Source: Candidatus Saccharimonadales bacterium (GTDB lineage Bacteria; Patescibacteriota; Saccharimonadia; Saccharimonadales; UBA4665). From it: a stretch of 64,000 bases of DNA. The notes beneath the pieces are model-generated. The model was not told the origin of the DNA and ran no database searches. It saw only the letters and a list, made by a program, of their open reading frames with translations. Numbering within the stretch: the stretch's first letter is position 1; each line of letters opens with the position of its first letter. Location: positions 22,383 to 86,382 of the forward strand of contig JBDSPW010000007.1 in NCBI GenBank assembly GCA_039930145.1. Reading direction: 5' to 3'. Positions 7,487 through 58,117 of the stretch are shown here, piece after piece. A program made the position numbers and the translations under genes.

Positions 7487-8404
7487 ATGCAATTCGCTAA
7501 AGCTAAAACAGATTTTCTAGAGTACCTCGAGATTGAACAAAACCGTTCGCAAAAAACGATTAGCAATTACGATCATTACCTCACCCGTCTGGTAGATTTT
7601 GCCGGCGATATCGAGGTATCCGATATCGACCCCGAGCTGATTCGTAAATGGCGCCTCTGGCTTAACCGCTTGGGCACTAACGTATCTGACGAATTGCAGA
7701 AGTCTACGCAGAATTATCACCTGATTGCCCTACGCAGCTTCCTCAAGTTCTGCGCCAAACGAAACATTCCGGCCATCCCCGCCGACAAGATCGAGCTCGC
7801 GCGCACCGTGCGCAAACAAGTCACTTTCTTAAACGAGGAAGAGCTGGAGCGAATGTTTGCCGAACCCAAAATCGACACCCTGCCTGGCATGCGCGACCGT
7901 GCTATCCTGGAACTTTTATTCAGCAGTGGCCTACGTGTTTCCGAGCTGGTCGGGCTCGACCGCGACCATATCAACCTGAATCGCCGAGAGTTCATGGTGC
8001 GTGGTAAGGGCCAGAAGGACCGACCGATATTTATCAGCTCTGAAGCTGCCGAGTGGATTGAACGCTACCTAAAAGACCGCAAAGATACCGCAAAACCGCT
8101 GTTTGTGCGTTACAGCGGTACCAAAAAGGTCGATTTAACAGGTAACTACCACCGTTTGACCGCCCGAAGTATTCAACGTCTCGTTGCCCGCTACGCCCTG
8201 CTGGCCGGTATCACAAAACATGTCAGCCCGCACACCATGCGTCACAGCTTTGCCACCGATTTACTGATGAATGGCGCCGATTTACGTTCTGTGCAAGCGA
8301 TGCTCGGCCACAGCAATATCAGCACGACACAAATTTATACTCACGTAACCGATCCGCACCTCAAAAGCGTCCACGAACGTTTTCATCACAAGAACAACGA
8401 CTAG
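7487..8404 (+). CDS. Tyrosine recombinase XerC/XerD family
   Basis: SAM-like N-domain. The C-terminal region reads HTMRHSFATDLLMNGADLRSVQAMLGHSNISTTQIYTHV (R..H..R..Y catalytic pattern). Confidence 0.85.
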   Translation: MQFAKAKTDFLEYLEIEQNRSQKTISNYDHYLTRLVDFAGDIEVSDIDPELIRKWRLWLNRLGTNVSDELQKSTQNYHLIALRSFLKFCAKRNIPAIPADKIELARTVRKQVTFLNEEELERMFAEPKIDTLPGMRDRAILELLFSSGLRVSELVGLDRDHINLNRREFMVRGKGQKDRPIFISSEAAEWIERYLKDRKDTAKPLFVRYSGTKKVDLTGNYHRLTARSIQRLVARYALLAGITKHVSPHTMRHSFATDLLMNGADLRSVQAMLGHSNISTTQIYTHVTDPHLKSVHERFHHKNND

Positions 8405-19502: not shown

Positions 19503-21854
19503 TTACAGAACTGGGGGCAAGCCGGTGATTGCATCATAATTGTTTCCTATTTTTGCTGTCGAAGCACGTGGTAGCCAAACCTCTGGCGAATAGTCGAACA
19601 CTTCGGCGGCATTGTTCACGCGCCATGTGTCCCCAGGCGCGGCGCCAACTGTGCCGGGTGTCCGCAGGAATTGGATTTGTTGGGCCGCGAAGGCGCCATG
19701 GATTGTCAGTTTTTGTTTGCAGAGATTGTAATAGCCAGCATTGAGTGGGTTTGCTTGTGCTCGTATGCCCGTTGCGCAGGTGTAAATAGTGCCGCCTGAC
19801 ATATTACCGGCGCCATCGTCGGCTTGCTCGGCGACATATATGCCATCGAGTTGTGTAACATCCTTATCAATGAAGATATTACCGCCTACAACTACTAATT
19901 TGAAGTACGGTATTTGATCGAGCGAAGCCCAGCCACCTGTTCCACCGTAAGCGATACCAGTACCCGTTATATAGACATCATGCCCGACGACATAATGTAC
20001 TTCTTGAGTCCCAGCCAACAATGGCGCGGCAATATTATGAACAATGGTTTCATCGCTCGTTGTATTAGTAGGTCCTGTGGGGATATCGCTCGTAAAGTCA
20101 CACGTGCCACTCGTGCCACCAAACGAACCACCAAACAAACCTTGCGTCGGATCGAGTTGTGACGTCGTCGATAAACCAGTATTCGCAAAACTCAATCCTG
20201 TCGGCGTGCCGCCGGAGCCCGCTGGGAGTTCCGAAGCACTCGAGAAATCAAGAATTTGATTCAGAGCCAATACTGCGTACTGCGCACCCGCCCCCGTAAA
20301 GCCCGCATCTCGGTTATTCCAGCTGTACACGCGAGCCTCATCATTCGTGATACATGACTGGCTCGCGTCGGTTGTTGTCCCCACTACCGAAACACCCGCT
20401 GACACATCTCCGCCGTATACATGCAGATAGGGCTGGTTGGAAACAGTAAAGGTCTCGTTACACACTAGTTGCGGCAGACCCGCGTCATCATAGGCCCACG
20501 TTGCAGTGTACGTTCCCGTAGCAAGTGTCGGTCCAAGCTGAGAAGCGTTAGCTCCAAACGAGCCGGTGGCGATCGACGCCCCGCCGGCAGTAGTAATAAC
20601 GGGTGTTACTGAAGATGGATTGCCATTAAAGTTAACCAAGGGAGCAATCGATAGCTGCATAGTAGGAGCACTTGGCGTGTACGGCACTGAAAACTCCACT
20701 GTTGCAGCGGCCTTAAACCTGGTTCGGCTATCGAATACTGTAGGTGTAGTACTAAATGATCCGCAATCCACTCCAACTGCTAATTTAAATATCCACCGCA
20801 TATGATACGCACGGCCAGCAACAAAATTATAAGAGAAACTAGTTGTGCCGACCGGGAGCATGACATGCGTACCACCAGACCCACCATAGGCTAAGCCAGC
20901 ACTAGTGCAGTTAGCCTGCCCCGTATAACAGATACTGTAACCAACAAGTTTATACGTCGGGAGTGCGCTGGTATCGATGGTAACTGTATGCGCTGATACG
21001 CCAGTGGCTCCGATAGGTATCGCCGGAGCATTACCAGGTGCACCATTATAATAAAAAGCGTTACGTGCATCATTTCCGGTTCCGGAGACAGCCGTATTCT
21101 TTGTACTAAATGGCACCGCAGCGCTTGCGGGTACTGCCGTAAATCCACCATATGGCCGAGTCGTCGCGTCGTAACCTTGATCGTCTATTTTTACTCCATC
21201 GAGTGTAGCTTTTGGCACAGCCTGGCGTGTAATACACACACTCGTAAAGTACGTATTAGTAAGTCCAGTGCCACGGCTATCCGAATATTGGCCGGAATAT
21301 GCAACCGAGTAACAAGTCGGGCCAGAACCAGCAACACCTTTACCTGTTACATTTAGTGTTACCCGAAGCGCACCAGGTGGATCAGTAAACTGCCCGGGGT
21401 TTGTTGTGCCAGTTCCGCGGTTGATAGTTGTCCCAGAAGGAAAAGATATGGGAACCTGTCCACCGGCAGCGGCTTTCAGGTTAAAGATTTTAGCACTCGA
21501 AAACGACGTACCTCCCTGCGAAACAGGACAGTTATACGCCGTCGTCCACATGGTCGCAGAAACGGTTGTCGCATTCCATGCGACCGTCATATTTTCATCC
21601 CAACGAGCATTAGTTAGGTCAGCTGTAGGTGTGTCATTCACCCACACAGCTCCAAACGTTGTTACGTTGATATTGGCAGGAGCAGTGGAATAACAAAGCG
21701 CTGCACGGTTCGTTTCGGTGGTGTTTTTTCCGGCACGAGTAACTCCGGCCGCATGCACAGTCGGCGAATATACACATAGCAAACTTAGCATCGCAAAAAT
21801 ACTAATTGCAAACATCGATTTTTGGTGTCTGCTTTGGATGTTAACCCTGACCAT
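19503..21854 (-). CDS. Large secreted Gly/Thr/Ala-rich protein of unknown function
   Basis: Signal peptide ...LLCVYSPTVHA/AG. Length is 783 aa, with no recognisable catalytic motif. It lies immediately upstream of pilM. Confidence 0.6.
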   Translation of the reverse strand: MVRVNIQSRHQKSMFAISIFAMLSLLCVYSPTVHAAGVTRAGKNTTETNRAALCYSTAPANINVTTFGAVWVNDTPTADLTNARWDENMTVAWNATTVSATMWTTAYNCPVSQGGTSFSSAKIFNLKAAAGGQVPISFPSGTTINRGTGTTNPGQFTDPPGALRVTLNVTGKGVAGSGPTCYSVAYSGQYSDSRGTGLTNTYFTSVCITRQAVPKATLDGVKIDDQGYDATTRPYGGFTAVPASAAVPFSTKNTAVSGTGNDARNAFYYNGAPGNAPAIPIGATGVSAHTVTIDTSALPTYKLVGYSICYTGQANCTSAGLAYGGSGGTHVMLPVGTTSFSYNFVAGRAYHMRWIFKLAVGVDCGSFSTTPTVFDSRTRFKAAATVEFSVPYTPSAPTMQLSIAPLVNFNGNPSSVTPVITTAGGASIATGSFGANASQLGPTLATGTYTATWAYDDAGLPQLVCNETFTVSNQPYLHVYGGDVSAGVSVVGTTTDASQSCITNDEARVYSWNNRDAGFTGAGAQYAVLALNQILDFSSASELPAGSGGTPTGLSFANTGLSTTSQLDPTQGLFGGSFGGTSGTCDFTSDIPTGPTNTTSDETIVHNIAAPLLAGTQEVHYVVGHDVYITGTGIAYGGTGGWASLDQIPYFKLVVVGGNIFIDKDVTQLDGIYVAEQADDGAGNMSGGTIYTCATGIRAQANPLNAGYYNLCKQKLTIHGAFAAQQIQFLRTPGTVGAAPGDTWRVNNAAEVFDYSPEVWLPRASTAKIGNNYDAITGLPPVL

Positions 21855-22359
21855 AAGGATTCTCCGGTTTCTTCGTATCTGCTTTTAGCGTGTCGTGCAG
21901 TTGTTTTAGATTGATTCCATCCACAATCCGACTTGCCGGTGACTTGCCATGTGTCTTCAAATTCATGAGTTGCTCGTACTCCTTAAGAGCATCTTGTGAC
22001 ATCCCTGCCCCGTAATACCCTACCATCGAGATATACACACAGCTCGGATCACTTGCATAGCTCGCCTTAGACCGGACCTCCTTAGCGATAGCATCAATCT
22101 GATTAGCACCTTTTTGCTTCACTGTAGAACTATAACTGTCGAGGAGTTTTGTGTTGCCGCTGCATGGGCCAGTGGTTTGTGGCGATGCAATGCCTAGGTA
22201 TCGATTTACCACAGGGCGTGTAAACGGTAGTGCGTACAGCAAACAGATTACTATGATAATGACACCGACTACTGTAGCGATTTTTTTTATAGCAAATACA
22301 GGGGCCTGGTCTTTACTGCCACTAACGACTACTTTGCTACCCACATCTTTATCTGCCAT
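21841..22359 (-). CDS. N-terminally membrane-anchored protein of unknown function
   Basis: 172 aa with one TM helix (VVGVIIIVICLLYALPF). A 14-nt overlap with the 783-aa gene suggests translational coupling. Confidence 0.55.
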   Translation of the reverse strand: MADKDVGSKVVVSGSKDQAPVFAIKKIATVVGVIIIVICLLYALPFTRPVVNRYLGIASPQTTGPCSGNTKLLDSYSSTVKQKGANQIDAIAKEVRSKASYASDPSCVYISMVGYYGAGMSQDALKEYEQLMNLKTHGKSPASRIVDGINLKQLHDTLKADTKKPENPYGQG

Positions 22360-22608: not shown

Positions 22609-23403
22609 TTAGCTACCAATAAGCGTGAAAAACACCACCGTGTTGTCCTTGTGGGACACGATAGATGCATCCACGCCTCCGCTACAGGTGATGACTGCTA
22701 AGTCAGCTTCTTTGGGTGCATGTTGCAGCACGTTCAGAAGCGCCGTAGCGTCGTCCTTGCGGATTTTGCCGATTGGCTTCCCGAGCACCTTGTAGCGCTG
22801 AACCTTGTGGGGGTCAGCCGCAGCGATGGTCAGGATTTGCCCAGATTTGAGGTTTCCGATGTCATTGAAGACGCCGTAGCCATTAATCTGAGTGTGCCCG
22901 AGCAGAATGGGAATCTGCCCGTCCTTGTGCTCACCTGCTCGAGGTCCATCGGACCACCAAGCTACTTGGTACATCGCCTTTGATCCGGTAGGAACACCGA
23001 ACTGCCAGACGTTTTTGCCAAGATGAGCATCCCAGGCATACACAGAACCCTTGGGCACAATCGACGTGTTGATGCCGACAGCAGGAATCCAGATGTGTGC
23101 TGGGACAAACGGGCTTACAACGTTCGCTGGCTTGGGCGACGTTGTTTTAGGCGAGGATTTCGTGGATGAAACCATCGTCTTGCTAGCCGTAGCCGTCGGC
23201 GACGCTGACGTCGTTGTCGACATCGCCGACGGCACGGGTGCTGGCGTAGCCAATGAATCAATTGCAGCTCGCTCGCGTGCGTAGTGCACAACGCTCAAAC
23301 CGACAAGAGAAACACCAACCAACGCCAGCACCCCGACTAGAACATAGGTCCGAACTCGCCGCCTAGTAGCGACGCGTCGGACGGATCGTGGCGACGATGA
23401 CAC
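22609..23403 (-). CDS. Sortase-family transpeptidase (class E/F-like); start uncertain (GTG at 23403 proposed)
   Basis: Basic N-terminus with TM helix (RRRVRTYVLVGVLALVGVSLVGLSVV), a Ser/Thr linker, and the catalytic-type motifs LLGHTQ (His) and LAVITCSGG (Cys). The ORF-track start at 23808 adds an Arg/Pro-rich artefact that overlaps the upstream gene. Confidence 0.7.
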   Translation of the reverse strand: MSSSPRSVRRVATRRRVRTYVLVGVLALVGVSLVGLSVVHYARERAAIDSLATPAPVPSAMSTTTSASPTATASKTMVSSTKSSPKTTSPKPANVVSPFVPAHIWIPAVGINTSIVPKGSVYAWDAHLGKNVWQFGVPTGSKAMYQVAWWSDGPRAGEHKDGQIPILLGHTQINGYGVFNDIGNLKSGQILTIAAADPHKVQRYKVLGKPIGKIRKDDATALLNVLQHAPKEADLAVITCSGGVDASIVSHKDNTVVFFTLIGS

Positions 23404-24466
23404 CGCGGGACATCCAGGCCAGGATGAGGAGCGATGCCGCGATGGCCGCGAGACCGAGCCGCATCTGGTTGGAGTTGTTGTCTCCGGAACCACCCGTGTG
23501 TGCCGCGACCGGGTAGCTGTGCTTGGTCGTGGTGGATGGCGCCGGCTTGGTGGTCTTGCTCGGGTGCGACGTGGACGGGTGTCCAGTCGAGGTGGTCTTC
23601 GTCCCCGTCGACGTGGTGCTGCTGGAGCTGGTGCTCGAGCTGCTCGTGGTCGACGTGGTCGATGTGCTGGTACACACCTTGACCTCAGCACTCGCGCTGG
23701 CGCTGGTCTCGTTGTCACCGGTGACGGTGACGTGGTAGACACCCGGCACGTCGGCAACGATCGAGAACGTGTTGTCGACGAGACCCGGTGTTGGTACCGC
23801 ATCTCCATCAGGGTTCACGCCTGCAACCGAGTAGTTGACGCCGTCGACCATGTTGCTGATCTCACCGTTGATGAGACCACTGGTCTCGCCTCCGATGCAT
23901 CCCACCACGCTGAGGTCGAGCCCGAGCTTGGCGGTTGAAGTGGTGCTCGAGCTGCTCGAGGTCGAAGACGTGGAACTGGTCGAGCTCGACGACGAGGTCG
24001 TGCTGCTGGTCGCGCCGCACGGGCCGAAGCTCGGCGACTTGGTGTTGACGCTGCTGCCGAAGTCAGCACCGGTGGTGCTGGCGACCTCCACGCGGAGCGT
24101 ATTGGCAGTGTCCGGGTAGCCGTCGGTGACGTTGATGGTGTATGGGTAGGACGTCTGACCGGCGTGCAGCGTGACCGTGGTCGTCTGGAGCGGGCTGGTG
24201 TCGTGGAACACCGAGTCTGCCGGGACGTGGTAGGTCAGCTTCAACACGATCGTCGCGCCCTCCACCGGGTTGGTCACCGTGATGGTGCCGGTGCCGGTGC
24301 AGGATGCCGTGATGTTCGTGATGACAGGCCCACTCGAAGAGGTTGCCGAAGCAGGCCCTACGAGGACGGTCAGCCCACCGAACACCATCAGCACGAGAGC
24401 AGCAGCGAATGACGCTACTGACTTCCAGCCGAGTTGGACCTGACGCGGTCCGTTGTTGAGTTTCAT
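23363..24466 (-). CDS. Cell-wall-anchored surface protein with an LAxTG-like sorting signal
   Basis: Signal-peptide-like N-terminus and two ~100-aa domains separated by Ser/Thr tracts. The C-terminus has PVAAHTGG, then the hydrophobic LGLAAIAASLLILAW, then the basic tail RGVIVATIRPTRRY. Confidence 0.75.
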   Translation of the reverse strand: MKLNNGPRQVQLGWKSVASFAAALVLMVFGGLTVLVGPASATSSSGPVITNITASCTGTGTITVTNPVEGATIVLKLTYHVPADSVFHDTSPLQTTTVTLHAGQTSYPYTINVTDGYPDTANTLRVEVASTTGADFGSSVNTKSPSFGPCGATSSTTSSSSSTSSTSSTSSSSSTTSTAKLGLDLSVVGCIGGETSGLINGEISNMVDGVNYSVAGVNPDGDAVPTPGLVDNTFSIVADVPGVYHVTVTGDNETSASASAEVKVCTSTSTTSTTSSSSTSSSSTTSTGTKTTSTGHPSTSHPSKTTKPAPSTTTKHSYPVAAHTGGSGDNNSNQMRLGLAAIAASLLILAWMSRGVIVATIRPTRRY

Positions 24467-24661
24467 GCGGTTCCCTCTCGAACAACCTCTCTTTACGCAC
24501 GGGTGTGCAAAAGTAGAGGGTCTTACCTAATTAGGCATACGCGCGTAATGCCTACTAGTACTGCAGTCAACACACAACTAAGTGCGTATGTACTGGCTGC
24601 AGTACTATGGCGTTGCTACGTCGATTCGAGAGGTAAAGACACATAAAATACGAATATGTTT

Positions 24662-24676
24662 GCAATCTGACATGTC
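24662..24676. repeat. Right copy of the 15-bp inverted repeat bracketing high-GC island 1
   Basis: gcaatctgacatgtc is the exact reverse complement of 22483-22497. Confidence 0.75.
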
Positions 24677-24858
24677 AAAGTGCGAACCCTGGAGAGACGT
24701 AACGGCGTCATCGTTCAGACGAACGGCGCCAAAACACCTCTTACTCCAAAATTGCTAGACTATAGTACCAAAAAACTAGTGTTTTGTCAATAAAATGCTT
24801 ATCTTTCACCCCTGTTATTTAGCTGGACTGATTGAACCACCTCTGTTAAAATATACTA

Positions 24859-33644: not shown

Positions 33645-34481
33645 TCAGCTGAACCAGCCCGCCAGGTGCCGCTTGTAGGGCTTCTGACCCTCCTCGTCGT
33701 CCCAGCGCTGCATGAGCTCTCCCGGGAAGTTCTCCCGTGGGTGCCAGTGGACGTAGGGCTTGCCGACGACGAACGCCGGTGTCTGACCGTCGGTGCCGTC
33801 GAACTCGATGTAGCCCATGTCGGTGCCGTCACTGCGGGCGAAGGCCTTGCCCTCGAGGGAGTTGATCCTGTCGGAGAGGCGTACGAGCCGGCCGGCATTG
33901 ATCTGCTCCCAGACCGCGGCGATCCACTCGGTGTGCCTGTCGAGCTCCATCTTGAGCTGCGCCGGCAGCTGCTGGTCCTGCAGAACGAACGCGTCGAGGC
34001 CGAAGATGTTCACCTCGGTACCTGACAGCTCGAACAGGTCGAAGTCGCCGCAGAACATCACCATGGTGATGGTGTCGTTCTCGACCCAGCCGTACGGCAC
34101 ACGCTCGTTGAGCGTCACCGGCATGGGGGCCACCTGCGCGAGCATCTCGCTCATGGTCGGCGCCTCGGCCTTGTCGCCGCCGAACTCCACGACGAGGCCC
34201 TCGTCCTTCTTGACGTAGAGCTCGTAGGCCGGGAGACGATCTTCGCCCTTGAAGCCGGCGAAGCTCATCCGGTGATGACCGTCGGAGTCGTGTGCGACCT
34301 TGACGGCCAGCGGCCCTGCGTCCAGCACGAACGATGCGGTGTCGTGTCCTCCTGAACAGTGCCAGCCCTGGACGGCGTCCGGGAGCTGCTCGGCCTCGTG
34401 GAGCTTGGTGTGCACCAGCTCGTTGAATCGCTTGATGACCTGCTTGTCGGTCACTGTGTCAACAACTTGCATTGCTACCAC
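33645..34481 (-). CDS. High-GC orphan protein of unknown function (island 2)
   Basis: 278-aa ORF. The sampled line 33781-33840 is 67% G+C. A strong GGAGGTGG Shine-Dalgarno sequence precedes the ATG. Confidence 0.65.
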   Translation of the reverse strand: MVAMQVVDTVTDKQVIKRFNELVHTKLHEAEQLPDAVQGWHCSGGHDTASFVLDAGPLAVKVAHDSDGHHRMSFAGFKGEDRLPAYELYVKKDEGLVVEFGGDKAEAPTMSEMLAQVAPMPVTLNERVPYGWVENDTITMVMFCGDFDLFELSGTEVNIFGLDAFVLQDQQLPAQLKMELDRHTEWIAAVWEQINAGRLVRLSDRINSLEGKAFARSDGTDMGYIEFDGTDGQTPAFVVGKPYVHWHPRENFPGELMQRWDDEEGQKPYKRHLAGWFS

Positions 34482-55939: not shown

Positions 55940-58117
55940 ATGAGCCCTAGTTTAATTATTGTTTCAAATCGCCTGCCGGTGAGCGTCAAAAAAACCGACG
56001 ACAAGCTGGAGTTCTACCCCAGTATCGGTGGCCTCGCCACCGGCCTCGCAAGTTATGCAACCAATAAGCGCAATAAATGGATTGGCTGGCCAGGTGTTGC
56101 CAGCGAAGAAGTGACCGACGCCGAGAAACAAGAGATTACGGCGGAACTCCGCAAGCACAATTGTTATCCTGTATTTCTCACGCGTAAGCAAGTGGGTGAG
56201 TACTATAACGGCTACAGCAACAGCATCCTGTGGCCCCTGTTTCATGACGTCCATGTCTCGGCGACAGTGCTAAAAAACCAAGACGAATACTGGAAAGCTT
56301 ACCGCAAAGTAAACGCAGCTTTTGCCGACGCAACATTGGCGCTCAGTACCAAAGGCAGCCGCATTTGGGTGCATGACTACCAGCTGCTACTTTTGCCCGC
56401 CCTGCTACGCAAAGAACGTCCCGATGACAAAATCGGTTTCTTTTTGCACATTCCTTTTCCTGCTCACAAAGCGTTTACTGGGCTACGTGACGGTGAGGCG
56501 CTTTTGGCGGGAATGCTCGGTGCTGACCTGCTCGGTTTCCACACCAAAAATTATGTGCAGGACTTTTTAGATAGTTGTAGCCACTACGATGTCGGTGTTA
56601 TCGGTAATAAAGAAGTCATCTTGCAGGGTCGCGTGGCACGCGTTACTGATTTCCCGATGGGCATAGATTATGAAAAATATGTGCGTGCCAGCAAAGCCAG
56701 GGCCGTAAAGAACGAGCTGACAAAGTTCCGCCTAAAATACCTCGGCATGAAGGTAATCTTGACCGTCGACCGGCTCGATCCTACGAAAGGTCTGGTTGAA
56801 CGTGCGGCAGCGTACAAAGAGTTCTTGGTGCAGAACCCCCGGCTGCGTGGCAAAGTTGTGATGGTGATGTTGGCGGTACCGTCACGCACCGATATCGACG
56901 AGTACAAAAAACTGCGCATTAAGCTCGAGGCATTAGTCGAGGAGATTAATGCGACATTTGGCAATCGACACTGGCAACCAATCGATTACTTGTACCAATC
57001 AATGCCGTTCGAGCAGTTGGCAGCACTGTATCAACGCGCCGACGTGGCATTTATCGTACCCCTTCGCGATGGCATGAACCTCGTCGCCAAAGAGTACCTG
57101 GCTAGTAAGCCCAAGCGAAACGGCGTACTCGTGCTGAGTAAAACAGCCGGTGCCGCCCAAGAGCTCAAGGATGCCATTCAGGTAGACCCGAGCAAACCAC
57201 ACACCCTCGTAAATGGGCTAACCCGTGCACTCACTATGCCCGAAAAAGAATTAAAAGCCCGTGTCGGTAGTATGCAAGATTTGCTGGCAACTTCGACTGT
57301 CCAAAACTGGGCGGGTGGGTTTATCAAATCACTCAAGCAGCCACAAGGACTCGAGGCCATCCGTACGCCTTCACTTAATCCCGCTCGACGTAGAGCCTTG
57401 GTTGCTGCTTTCCGAGCGGCCGACAGCCGCGTGTTATTTCTGGATTACGACGGCGTGCTCACCCCATTTAATGACAACCCTAGCAAGGCAAAGCCGAGCA
57501 AAGAGCTACTATCGATCCTGAAAAAACTCACGCCTAGAACAAAAGTTGTTATCGTCAGCGGCCGTAGCCACACCGATCTGCAAGAATGGCTGGGAGATCT
57601 GCCCGTGTCCCTCATTGCCGAACACGGTGCTTACACCCGTGAGTCCGGCAAGAAACGCTGGGTGCGCGCCGACAACGACCTATCCTGGAAAGACCAAGTA
57701 CTTCTTACCCTCGAAAAGTACGCCGCCAACACTCCTGGTGGGTTTGTAGAAGAAAAAGAATTTTCACTGGTCTGGCATTATCGCCGGGCTAGTACGTACT
57801 ACGCTCAAAAGCATCTGGTAATCTTAAAAAAACTGCTGGCACCAGTTGCAAAAAGACATGACTTGAGCGTTCAACAAGGTAACATGATCCTCGAGGTCCG
57901 ACCGCAAAATATCCATAAGGGCGCAGCAACCGCCAAACAGCTCAAAGAACATACGGAATTTATCCTGGCAATCGGTGACGATTTTACCGACGAAGATATG
58001 TTCTCATCGATGCCCGCCCGGGCCTACACTATAAAAGTGGGTCGTGGCCGCACGGCTGCCCGCTACCGCGCCAACAATGTCGCCGATGTGCTCGAACTAC
58101 TCAAAAAACTACACTGA
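55940..58117 (+). CDS. otsAB: Bifunctional trehalose-6-phosphate synthase (GT20) / trehalose-6-phosphate phosphatase fusion
   Basis: OtsA motifs [12 protein letters not shown] and [17 protein letters not shown]-type TPP motifs [12 protein letters not shown] and [10 protein letters not shown]. Length is 725 aa. Confidence 0.88.

Follow-up and report, generated by a model that had tools for sequence, protein, structure and literature searches.

A putative single-target sortase module with an exchanged passenger of probable high-GC origin in a Saccharimonadales bacterium

The stretch of DNA analyzed here (the window; 64 kb with a G+C content, GC, of 50.4%) derives from a Candidatus Saccharimonadales bacterium and contains two overlapping genes on the minus strand, of which the first encodes a putative sortase substrate and the second a sortase-like enzyme. 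We consider it probable that these genes serve a Saccharimonadales epibiont as a surface-display module for a single target, in which a resident chassis carries a swapped passenger of high-GC origin. An earlier note on this DNA had described the region as a high-GC two-gene island, consisting of a wall-anchored surface protein with an LAxTG-like signal and a sortase, that the epibiont had acquired from its actinobacterial host. The observation behind that description is real but mis-scoped, as the island is the substrate gene and not the gene pair. The features of the two genes, which overlap by 41 nucleotides (nt), are:

23363..24466, minus strand: sortase substrate, an open reading frame (ORF) of 367 amino acids (aa); NCBI MEO6513208.1, labelled hypothetical
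24011..24343, minus strand: passenger domain 1 (residues 42-152), a beta-sandwich of the immunoglobulin-like (Ig-like), fibronectin type III (FN3) or Calx-beta type
23651..23908, minus strand: passenger domain 2 (residues 187-272), with Ser/Thr tracts on both sides
23492..23515, minus strand: sorting motif YPVAAHTG (residues 318-325), with predicted cleavage between Thr and Gly
23366..23458, minus strand: hydrophobic helix LGLAAIAASLLILAWM and basic tail ...IRPTRRY, as read from the sequence; sister substrates have equivalents
22609..23403, minus strand: class-F-like sortase of 264 aa (ORF 22609-23808, likely start GTG 23403)

The region 22609-24466 has a GC content of 60.3%, the top value among all segments of 1.1 kb and 1.9 kb (mean 0.505, standard deviation (sd) around 0.03). 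The four 60-base counts given earlier were reproduced exactly (61.7% for 23461-23520, 66.7% for 23581-23640, 51.7% for 22021-22080 and 40.0% for 24721-24780), and the multiple stop-free overlapping frames are present as described. The GC content at third codon positions (GC3) assigns the excess to a single gene. The substrate gene has a GC3 of 0.826, compared to a mean of 0.538 (sd 0.076) for the 47 other ORFs (z = +3.8). Given its amino acid sequence and the codon usage of the window a GC3 of 0.554 is predicted, and for that reason amino-acid composition was rejected as the cause; relative to the sd of the background genes (0.056) the excess of +0.27 corresponds to a z of around 4.9. The sortase gene has a GC3 of 0.605, its excess of +0.057 is non-significant and its catalytic half has a GC content of 54%. 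The step in GC3 is located at the junction of the two genes, around position 23400. In extent as well as in significance, the proposed island holds for the substrate but not for the sortase, which is near-native.

The codon usage points in the same direction. Within the substrate gene Ile, Phe, Tyr, His, Leu and Glu are encoded solely by G/C-ending codons and Lys, Asn and Asp almost so. The log-likelihood ratio for mycobacterial versus window codon usage was +0.21 to +0.24 bits per codon for the substrate and -0.34 +/- 0.10 bits per codon for the background genes; that of the sortase (-0.14) is native-like, yet higher than those of all background genes. Translational selection was judged an unlikely cause of the high GC3, because the genes for EF-P, SSB, PNPase and a pilin-like protein, which bears an N-terminal methylation motif, have a GC3 of just 0.48-0.60. 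Composition and codon usage are foreign for the substrate alone and not for the sortase, and one swapped coding sequence within an old operon constitutes the whole compositional island.

Related metagenomic loci from five lineages were compared with the window (L001, L002, L006/L007, L008/L009 and L010; the sister loci). Five loci have a gene order in common, namely ychF, substrate, sortase, a small protein, a large protein and pilM/N/O. The locus is present in all sister loci and the passenger of the window is absent from them. The sister sortases are 42-83% identical to the window sortase (L002 80-83%, P0001 67%, P0015 65%, P0171 54% and P0233 42%). In each sister locus that includes the substrate gene (n=5, with L009 representing L008/L009) the GC3 is 0.75-0.87 for the substrate and 0.59-0.68 for the sortase, and in L001 and L002 the remaining genes have a GC3 of mainly 0.40-0.65. 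A blastn comparison of the window with L002 and L006, its two nearest loci, revealed 72-80% identity from ychF through the intergenic region to the substrate start codon (24470). The substrate coding sequence lacks DNA homology in this comparison, and the homology restarts around 23380, in the final codons of the substrate and at the beginning of the sortase gene, and runs to 22370. In the alignments the 5' breakpoint lies immediately after the ATG, and the sole conserved DNA island in the 3' part of the substrate gene encodes YPVAA(H)T(G). From one locus to the next, the passenger domains share no homology in most cases. The comparison shows the chassis (promoter, leader, inverted repeat, sorting motif, sortase and 3' region) to be inherited between ychF and pilMNO, and the passenger-coding part to be exchanged lineage by lineage, with breakpoints at the start codon and in the last codons.

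The proposal that the cassette was acquired from the host as a pair does not agree with these data, as only the substrate coding sequence was replaced between conserved flanks. The earlier note had itself named, as an outcome that would speak against it, closest homologues in other Patescibacteria that share the GC shift, and this is what the sister loci presented: the closest sortase homologues are syntenic in five Saccharimonadales-type loci and the GC3 shift of the substrate is shared. Separately, assembly breaks were seen in or beside the substrate gene of L008 (at position 1; 3.6 kb), of the P0004 contig (1.05 kb) and of the P0238 contig (1.7 kb), the last being 100% identical to the window sortase along its 121 aa. 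Such breaks would be expected if populations carried alternative passengers.

A homology search with the substrate, in which the Ser/Thr tracts were masked, recovered for the N-terminal domain one database homologue beyond itself (P0169, 40% identity over 141 aa) and for passenger domain 2 no homologue. P0169 is a protein of 253 aa that has LAMTGG at its C-terminus, a transmembrane (TM) helix and a basic tail, and it is encoded on a contig of 74.8% GC with GH88, CBM5/12, MFS and RecQ genes as neighbors. A metagenome scan with the aligned N-terminal domain yielded ten further loci of 59-73.5% GC with an identity of at most 45%. Several of these relatives end in LALTGG or LAQTGG anchors, and every homologue of the domain that was found is encoded on a contig with a GC content between 59% and 75%. 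A domain of the L002 passenger had a weak match in Thermomicrobium, its only match in the plasmid database, and the passengers of L010 and L006 were without a match in the plasmid collections. We infer that a high-GC Gram-positive bacterium, most likely a member of the Actinomycetota, the host phylum, was the source of the window passenger, which became fused to the sorting signal already resident at the locus. The actinobacterial character that had been ascribed to the region is borne out by the codon usage of the substrate, by the high-GC contigs of the N-domain family and by relatives of the cassette in Mycobacteriales (see below), but not by the near-native sortase. The reading of a host-derived two-gene island is thus partly supported.

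The organization of the substrate could be read in the sequence as it had been noted before, with an N-terminal signal peptide (ending in ...PASA and followed by TSSS), two domains set apart by Ser/Thr tracts and a tripartite sorting signal. The AlphaFold2 model of passenger domain 1 (predicted local distance difference test (pLDDT) 85, predicted template modelling score (pTM) 0.77) gave Foldseek matches to beta-sandwich domains throughout; similar structures are the Ig, FN3 and Calx-beta domains and the region with which an enterococcal LPXTG adhesin binds its ligand. The same tripartite layout occurs in L001, L002, L006, L009 and L010 and in three further loci (L011, L014 and L015), and in a six-frame motif search the YPVAAHTG-type motif was found as a single copy in the window. 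Neither the substrate, nor the sister substrates, nor the 172-aa and 783-aa proteins encoded next to the sortase had a match in Pfam and NCBIfam; the anchor models of both collections, including the LPXTG-anchor models that had been proposed as a check, were silent on the window substrate.

Among the sortase loci that have the upstream gene, the pattern [Y/F/I]P[V/I/G/A]x[A/S]xT[G/D/S] was found near the C-terminus of its product in 11 out of 11 cases:

Window: YPVAAHTG
L001: YPVAAPTG
L002: YPVAAHTD
L006: IPIAAHTG
L009: FPVAARTG
L010: YPVQSPTS
L011 (74% GC): YPGYAPTG
L003, a Mycobacterium metagenome-assembled genome (MAG): YPVQAPTG
L013, Mycobacterium sp. NBC_00419: YPIQAPTG
L014 (70% GC): YPVGAPTD
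L015 (60% GC): YPASAPTG

An LAxTG pentapeptide was not matched, as the motif is AAHTG after YPV, and position 1 of the pentapeptide is never Leu in the 11 loci (V, A, Q, Y, G or S). The assignment to an LAxTG signal with a class E/F sortase fits as to the xAxTG form and as to class F, which is the best family match, but the Leu is missing and no class E match was listed for the window protein at E<=0.1. In the two mycobacterial loci (L013 1732-3984 and L003 6769-7836) the Gly/Pro-rich protein upstream of the sortase ends in ...YP[V/I]QAPTGLVD plus 4-5 residues. These substrates thus have 8-9 residues after the TG and lack a TM helix or basic tail, which makes for an unusually short signal. In L015 (1841-9108, on a contig of 60% GC) the genes of substrate and sortase precede a series of large genes of the TM and ATPase-like kind and the gene of an NlpC/P60-M23 hydrolase. 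This run of genes resembles a Gram-positive conjugation module, and the cassette may sometimes move on mobile elements.

The most plausible start of the sortase, the GTG at 23403, gives an Arg-rich N-terminus. Behind it lie a TM helix, a Ser/Thr/Pro linker and the catalytic domain, in which H170, C240 and N254 are located. The reported motifs LLGHTQ (holding H170) and ITCSGG (holding C240) are present in the overlapping gene, and a Pro, a Trp, H170, C240 and N254 are invariant in an alignment of 36 members. H170 and C240 align with H120 and C184 of SrtA. The protein passed the threshold of the Pfam Sortase family (PF04203) marginally, with 27.3 bits against a cutoff of 26.6, and the same domain is carried by the sortase relatives found in the homology search. 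The top family was NCBIfam class F (NF033748), with 46.8 bits, which is below the curated cutoff of 166, compared to 13.5 bits for class C. For reference, the class F model gives 175-178 bits for the Streptomyces enzymes, 82-98 for those of Mycobacteriales (named class F by NCBI) and 46-55 for the Saccharimonadales type. A sequence-profile search of the PDB returned a marginal sortase match (E = 0.07). The AlphaFold2 model, with a pLDDT of around 70-90 in the catalytic domain, confirmed the sortase fold that the earlier reading had expected, as the best 36 Foldseek matches in the PDB were all sortases (probability 1.00, TM-score (target) 0.40-0.55). The best structural matches were class C sortases. 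It had also been remarked that a conserved Arg after the Cys was not obvious, which is correct: N254 stands there, in the context ..SHKDNTVVF (..YRDNLVVYA in the Streptomyces class F counterpart). This accounts for the missing Arg, since in class F sortases a conserved Asn takes its place (PMC8703055), and N254 does not vary among the relatives. On basis of the predicted structure and the alignment, the protein has the fold and the catalytic His and Cys of the sortase superfamily, and by analogy to its relatives the enzyme would be a divergent, putative class-F-like sortase that is dedicated to the adjacent substrate.

In a HMMER scan of 1.84 billion representative proteins, 53 clusters passed E<1e-30 and 152 clusters E<1e-10 before the broad sortase background set in, and a profile of the sortase relatives retrieved 3,962 library proteins at E<=1e-3. 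The relatives with an organism name are class F sortases of Mycobacterium, Mycolicibacterium, Skermania and Rhodococcus (33-39% identity); the Streptomyces class F sortases are 25-30% identical. In a sortase-profile scan of species-representative genomes, which do not include the genome of the window, only two Mycobacterium MAG loci were found. A cassette with the same motif is present in Mycobacterium sp. NBC_00419 and on contigs of 60%, 70% and 74% GC as well. Locus L012, assigned to Rhodococcus sp. BH5 (GCA_027583855.1, JAJHVW010000032.1), was not used as actinobacterial evidence; it has a GC content of 45%, which suggests contamination or foreign DNA in that assembly, and lacks an upstream substrate. 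A crude neighbor-joining tree (200 bootstraps, with Streptomyces class F as the only outgroup) set the subfamily apart from Streptomyces class F at 100%, recovered a mycobacterial clade at 100% and clustered the window, L001, L002, L006 and P0004 at 92.5%. The weakly supported clade of all Saccharimonadales loci includes the 70% GC locus L014 in 96% of the replicates, and high-GC and Saccharimonadales members are therefore interleaved. The pairing of this sortase with the YPxxAxTG motif, which is common to Mycobacteriales and other high-GC bacteria, probably entered the Saccharimonadales long ago.

Regulatory features were recognized before, within and behind the two genes:

24762..24790, minus strand: near-consensus sigma-70-type promoter (TTGACA-17-TACTAT with an upstream TG), identified by promoter scan
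24467..24755, minus strand: 5' leader of around 290 nt, which ends in a ribosome-binding site (AAGAGAGG) and the start codon
24662..24676, no strand: left arm of an inverted repeat of 15 bp without mismatch (gene-strand sequence GACATGTCAGATTGC), in the leader, 196 nt before the start codon
22483..22497, no strand: right arm of the inverted repeat, 112 nt past the sortase stop codon
23192..23233, minus strand: hairpin with an 18-bp stem in the linker-coding region of the sortase, 130-170 nt past the substrate stop codon

The promoter sequence is kept in L002 and L006. The leader contains blocks of 18-27 nt that are invariant in L002 and L006 and partly in L010, and several predicted hairpins, and 9 pairs show compensatory changes over three sequences; at E<=1 it had no match in Rfam. 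The hairpin in the linker region recurs in L002 (9825-9868), L006 (7698-7739) and L001 (4420-4462) with stems of 17-19 bp, and a repeat search and RNAalifold revealed paired substitutions in L006 and L001. Such a hairpin may act in the processing or stabilisation of the mRNA and in this way set the ratio of substrate to sortase.

A perfect inverted repeat of 14-15 bp frames the substrate and sortase genes in 5 out of 5 lineages for which both flanks are available. The arms in the sister loci are:

L002, 8108-8122 and 10548-10562: GACATGTCAGATTGC
L006, 6139-6153 and 8408-8422: GACATGTCAGATTGC
L010, 224-237 and 3034-3047: ACATGTCAGACTGC
L001, 2872-2885 and 5142-5155: CATGTCGGACTGCA

Within each genome both arms bear identical substitutions and the adjoining sequences are unrelated. 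By our estimate, 2.6 kb of sequence would contain a perfect inverted repeat of 15 bp around 0.003 times by chance, and the two copies are the only exact ones in the window. A comparable flanking repeat was looked for around the actinobacterial cassettes and none was found. The right arm overlaps a CTGACA that resembles a -35 element and is part of a promoter-like site of the following gene. Three candidate explanations were considered. The repeat could delimit an invertible on/off DNA switch, for which the gene of a Xer-type tyrosine recombinase at 7487-8404 (plus strand) is a possible partner, but all five assemblies show a single orientation. The arms could form a 5'-3' duplex within the operon mRNA; both changes seen are transitions, as would fit G-U intermediates, but G-U pairs are absent from the 73 base pairs of the arms. 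They could also be paired operators of one regulator, given that a Crp-family gene is conserved nearby, but this reading is weakened because the palindromic core TGACATGTCA is lost in L001, where the identity between the arms is kept. As for the recombinase gene itself, it directly abuts the type IV pilus cluster, at the end with the minor pilins, and could encode an ordinary XerC/D or a candidate invertase. An extended version of our interpretation, in which the fixed chassis is repeatedly reloaded with domains captured from the high-GC Gram-positive bacteria on which the epibionts live, for adhesion or mimicry with host-type domains on the wall, and the inverted repeats bring about phase variation by DNA inversion, is in our opinion doubtful.

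Several known systems share part of these characteristics. The physiological roles of the class F sortases of Actinomycetota are largely unknown (PMC13251363, PMC8225981, PMC8703055). Class F enzymes such as those of Streptomyces, SrtF1-4 of Actinoplanes and SrtF of Cutibacterium acnes (all NF033748) have the fold, the His, the Cys and the class-specific Asn in common with the window sortase, and an N-terminal membrane anchor is found in both. The differences are the low identity to the Streptomyces enzymes and the class F score far below cutoff, both given above, the motif (LPXTG is reported for C. acnes SrtF, against YPVAAHTG here) and the setting, since the window enzyme comes from a bacterium of the Candidate Phyla Radiation and has one adjacent, dedicated substrate. 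The cassette of Mycobacteriales (Mycobacterium sp. NBC_00419, CP107931, and the MAGs HKST-UBA41 and HKST-UBA43) is closer, with a sortase of the same subfamily at 33-39% identity, overlapping or adjacent genes in the same order and the YPxxAxTG motif. Unlike in the window, its substrates are Gly/Pro-rich and end in YP[V/I]QAPTG plus a short tail, without TM helix or basic tail, its GC content is native, and the 15-bp flanking inverted repeat and the pilus neighbors are absent.

The class E/LAxTG systems (Streptomyces SrtE1/E2 and the chaplins) have, like the window substrate, Ala at position 2 of the pentapeptide (AAHTG fits xAxTG), and genuine LAxTG signals occur on the relatives of the N-terminal passenger domain. 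They differ in having Leu where the window has Ala and in lacking the conserved YPV that precedes the pentapeptide here, and relatives of the window sortase score around 20-22 bits with the class E model, against a cutoff of 160. The class GN ('marine proteobacterial') sortase TIGR03784 has one dedicated substrate that is encoded adjacent to it. Conceptually, the combination of a single sortase and a single neighboring substrate is thus the same as in the window, but the class, the motif and the hosts, which are Gram-negative, are different, and relatives of the window sortase score weakly with this model (20-22 bits). Finally, identical short inverted repeats around a segment that encodes a surface protein are also characteristic of invertons and shufflons (fimS, Hin/Gin, R64 Rci). 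As in shufflons, the arms co-vary by lineage and a tyrosine recombinase gene is found, here at the far end of the pilus cluster. In contrast to these systems, the inverted orientation was seen in none of the 5 assemblies, and an adjacent dedicated invertase and alternative gene halves are lacking; the pattern is equally compatible with a 5'-3' RNA duplex or an operator pair.

Put together, the module could work as follows. The strong, conserved promoter and the leader would drive the operon of the two overlapping genes. The signal peptide would direct the export of the substrate, and the C-terminal helix and basic tail would keep it in the membrane, after which the membrane-tethered sortase (His170, Cys240, Asn254) would, by analogy to the chemistry of the family, cut YPVAAHTG between Thr and Gly and join the Thr to peptidoglycan. 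In this manner the two predicted beta-sandwich passenger domains would be displayed on Ser/Thr-rich stalks, and the protein would likely serve as a variable adhesin or surface antigen for host contact. A number of observations weigh against this interpretation. Substrates that are GC3-rich and carry mostly different passengers imply either repeated capture from high-GC sources or a force specific to the locus, for example biased gene conversion at a recombination hotspot, the codons for Gly, Ala and Arg show no strong G/C-ending bias, and the nearest passenger homologue is only 40-45% identical. Moreover, the clade of all Saccharimonadales loci has a bootstrap value of just 14.5%, the class F score of the sortase lies below the curated cutoff and the Pfam threshold is barely passed, and cleavage between Thr and Gly and attachment to the wall are predicted from family membership.

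The high GC3 could also be home-grown, in which case the coding sequence would be a diversifying recombination hotspot that is exchanged among Saccharimonadales strains, with the leader and the sortase gene as homology arms. GC-biased gene conversion or a different local bias would then maintain the high GC3, and the actinobacterial look would be convergent. The substrate GC3 of 0.75-0.87 in every Saccharimonadales locus with the gene, despite passengers that mostly differ, breakpoints that match conserved flanks usable for homologous exchange and the Gly, Ala and Arg codons, which are not actinobacterial-like, all fit this explanation. We nevertheless regard it as unlikely, since a jump from 0.54 to 0.83 is far above the GC3 increases that are known to be ascribed to biased gene conversion in bacteria, the N-domain family was found solely on 59-75% GC contigs and with LAxTG anchors, the sole plasmid-database match of the L002 passenger domain is in Thermomicrobium, and ORF 33645-34481 displays the same codon signature without such a locus architecture. 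That the substrate and sortase genes arrived together as one recent actinobacterial two-gene island is very unlikely. The GC content of the window does peak in this region, the cassette type does occur in Mycobacterium and on other high-GC contigs, and the GC3 and log-likelihood ratio of the sortase are slightly higher than those of every background gene; however, its GC3 excess is non-significant, five other Saccharimonadales-type loci have it in synteny with an identity of 42-83%, compared to just 33-39% for the best sortase named after an actinobacterium, and the DNA homology with the sister loci spans the sortase and not the substrate. The resemblance of the model to class C sortases and the adjoining pilus genes might suggest a pilin polymerase that builds a sortase-dependent pilus. 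This is highly improbable considering that the adjoining pili are of type IV (PilM/N/O/B/T/C/D) and not sortase pili, that the sequence family is class F (46.8 bits) rather than class C (13.5 bits), and that there is a single substrate, in which a YPKN-type pilin motif was not seen. Mis-binning or mis-assembly of actinobacterial DNA into the MAG would account for the foreign composition and codon usage of the substrate, but is extremely improbable, as the GC-rich gene lies within a 115-kb contig with genes of native composition on both sides and the same mosaic with conserved flanks is present in five independent assemblies from other samples.

The neighborhood of the module is as follows. The ychF gene sits upstream of the substrate gene on the opposite strand. 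Downstream of the sortase come the genes for the 172-aa and 783-aa proteins and then those for PilM, PilN, PilO, PilB, PilT, PilC, pilins and PilD, in agreement with the earlier placement of the cassette beside pilus genes. The gene pair is:

19503..22359, minus strand: TM protein of 172 aa and secreted, Thr/Gly-rich protein of 783 aa, without a family match; GC3 0.44

The GC3 of this pair lies under the window average, and a small and a large gene are found between the sortase gene and pilM in every sister locus that reaches that far. Two other loci of the window may be mentioned. Apart from the substrate gene, only the ORF at 33645-34481 (minus strand) has a GC3 above 0.64. This ORF by itself forms another sharply bounded GC island (62-66% GC, GC3 0.885), and its codon usage is of the actinobacterial type (log-likelihood ratio +0.37 to +0.45 bits per codon). 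The gene adjoins ftsK and encodes an acidic protein of 278 aa without an obvious signal peptide, for which Pfam and the phage and plasmid collections gave no match. At 55940-58117 (plus strand) a gene of native composition encodes a fused trehalose-6-phosphate synthase/phosphatase (OtsA-OtsB).

The Saccharibacteria that have been cultivated are attached to Actinomycetota. To our knowledge, how they recognize and hold their hosts is largely unknown apart from type IV pili. The locus described here is a testable candidate for host attachment, with a strongly promoted, predicted wall-anchored protein of which the exposed domains are exchanged between lineages and the anchoring machinery is kept beside the pilus genes. 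The inverted repeat and the conserved leader represent candidate regulatory features that were unannotated thus far, and the substrate gene is a clean example of a compositional island that comes down to one swapped coding sequence in an old operon. For one branch of the class F sortases, the analysis points to a dedicated substrate and to YPxx[A/S]xT[G/D/S] as the likely recognition motif.

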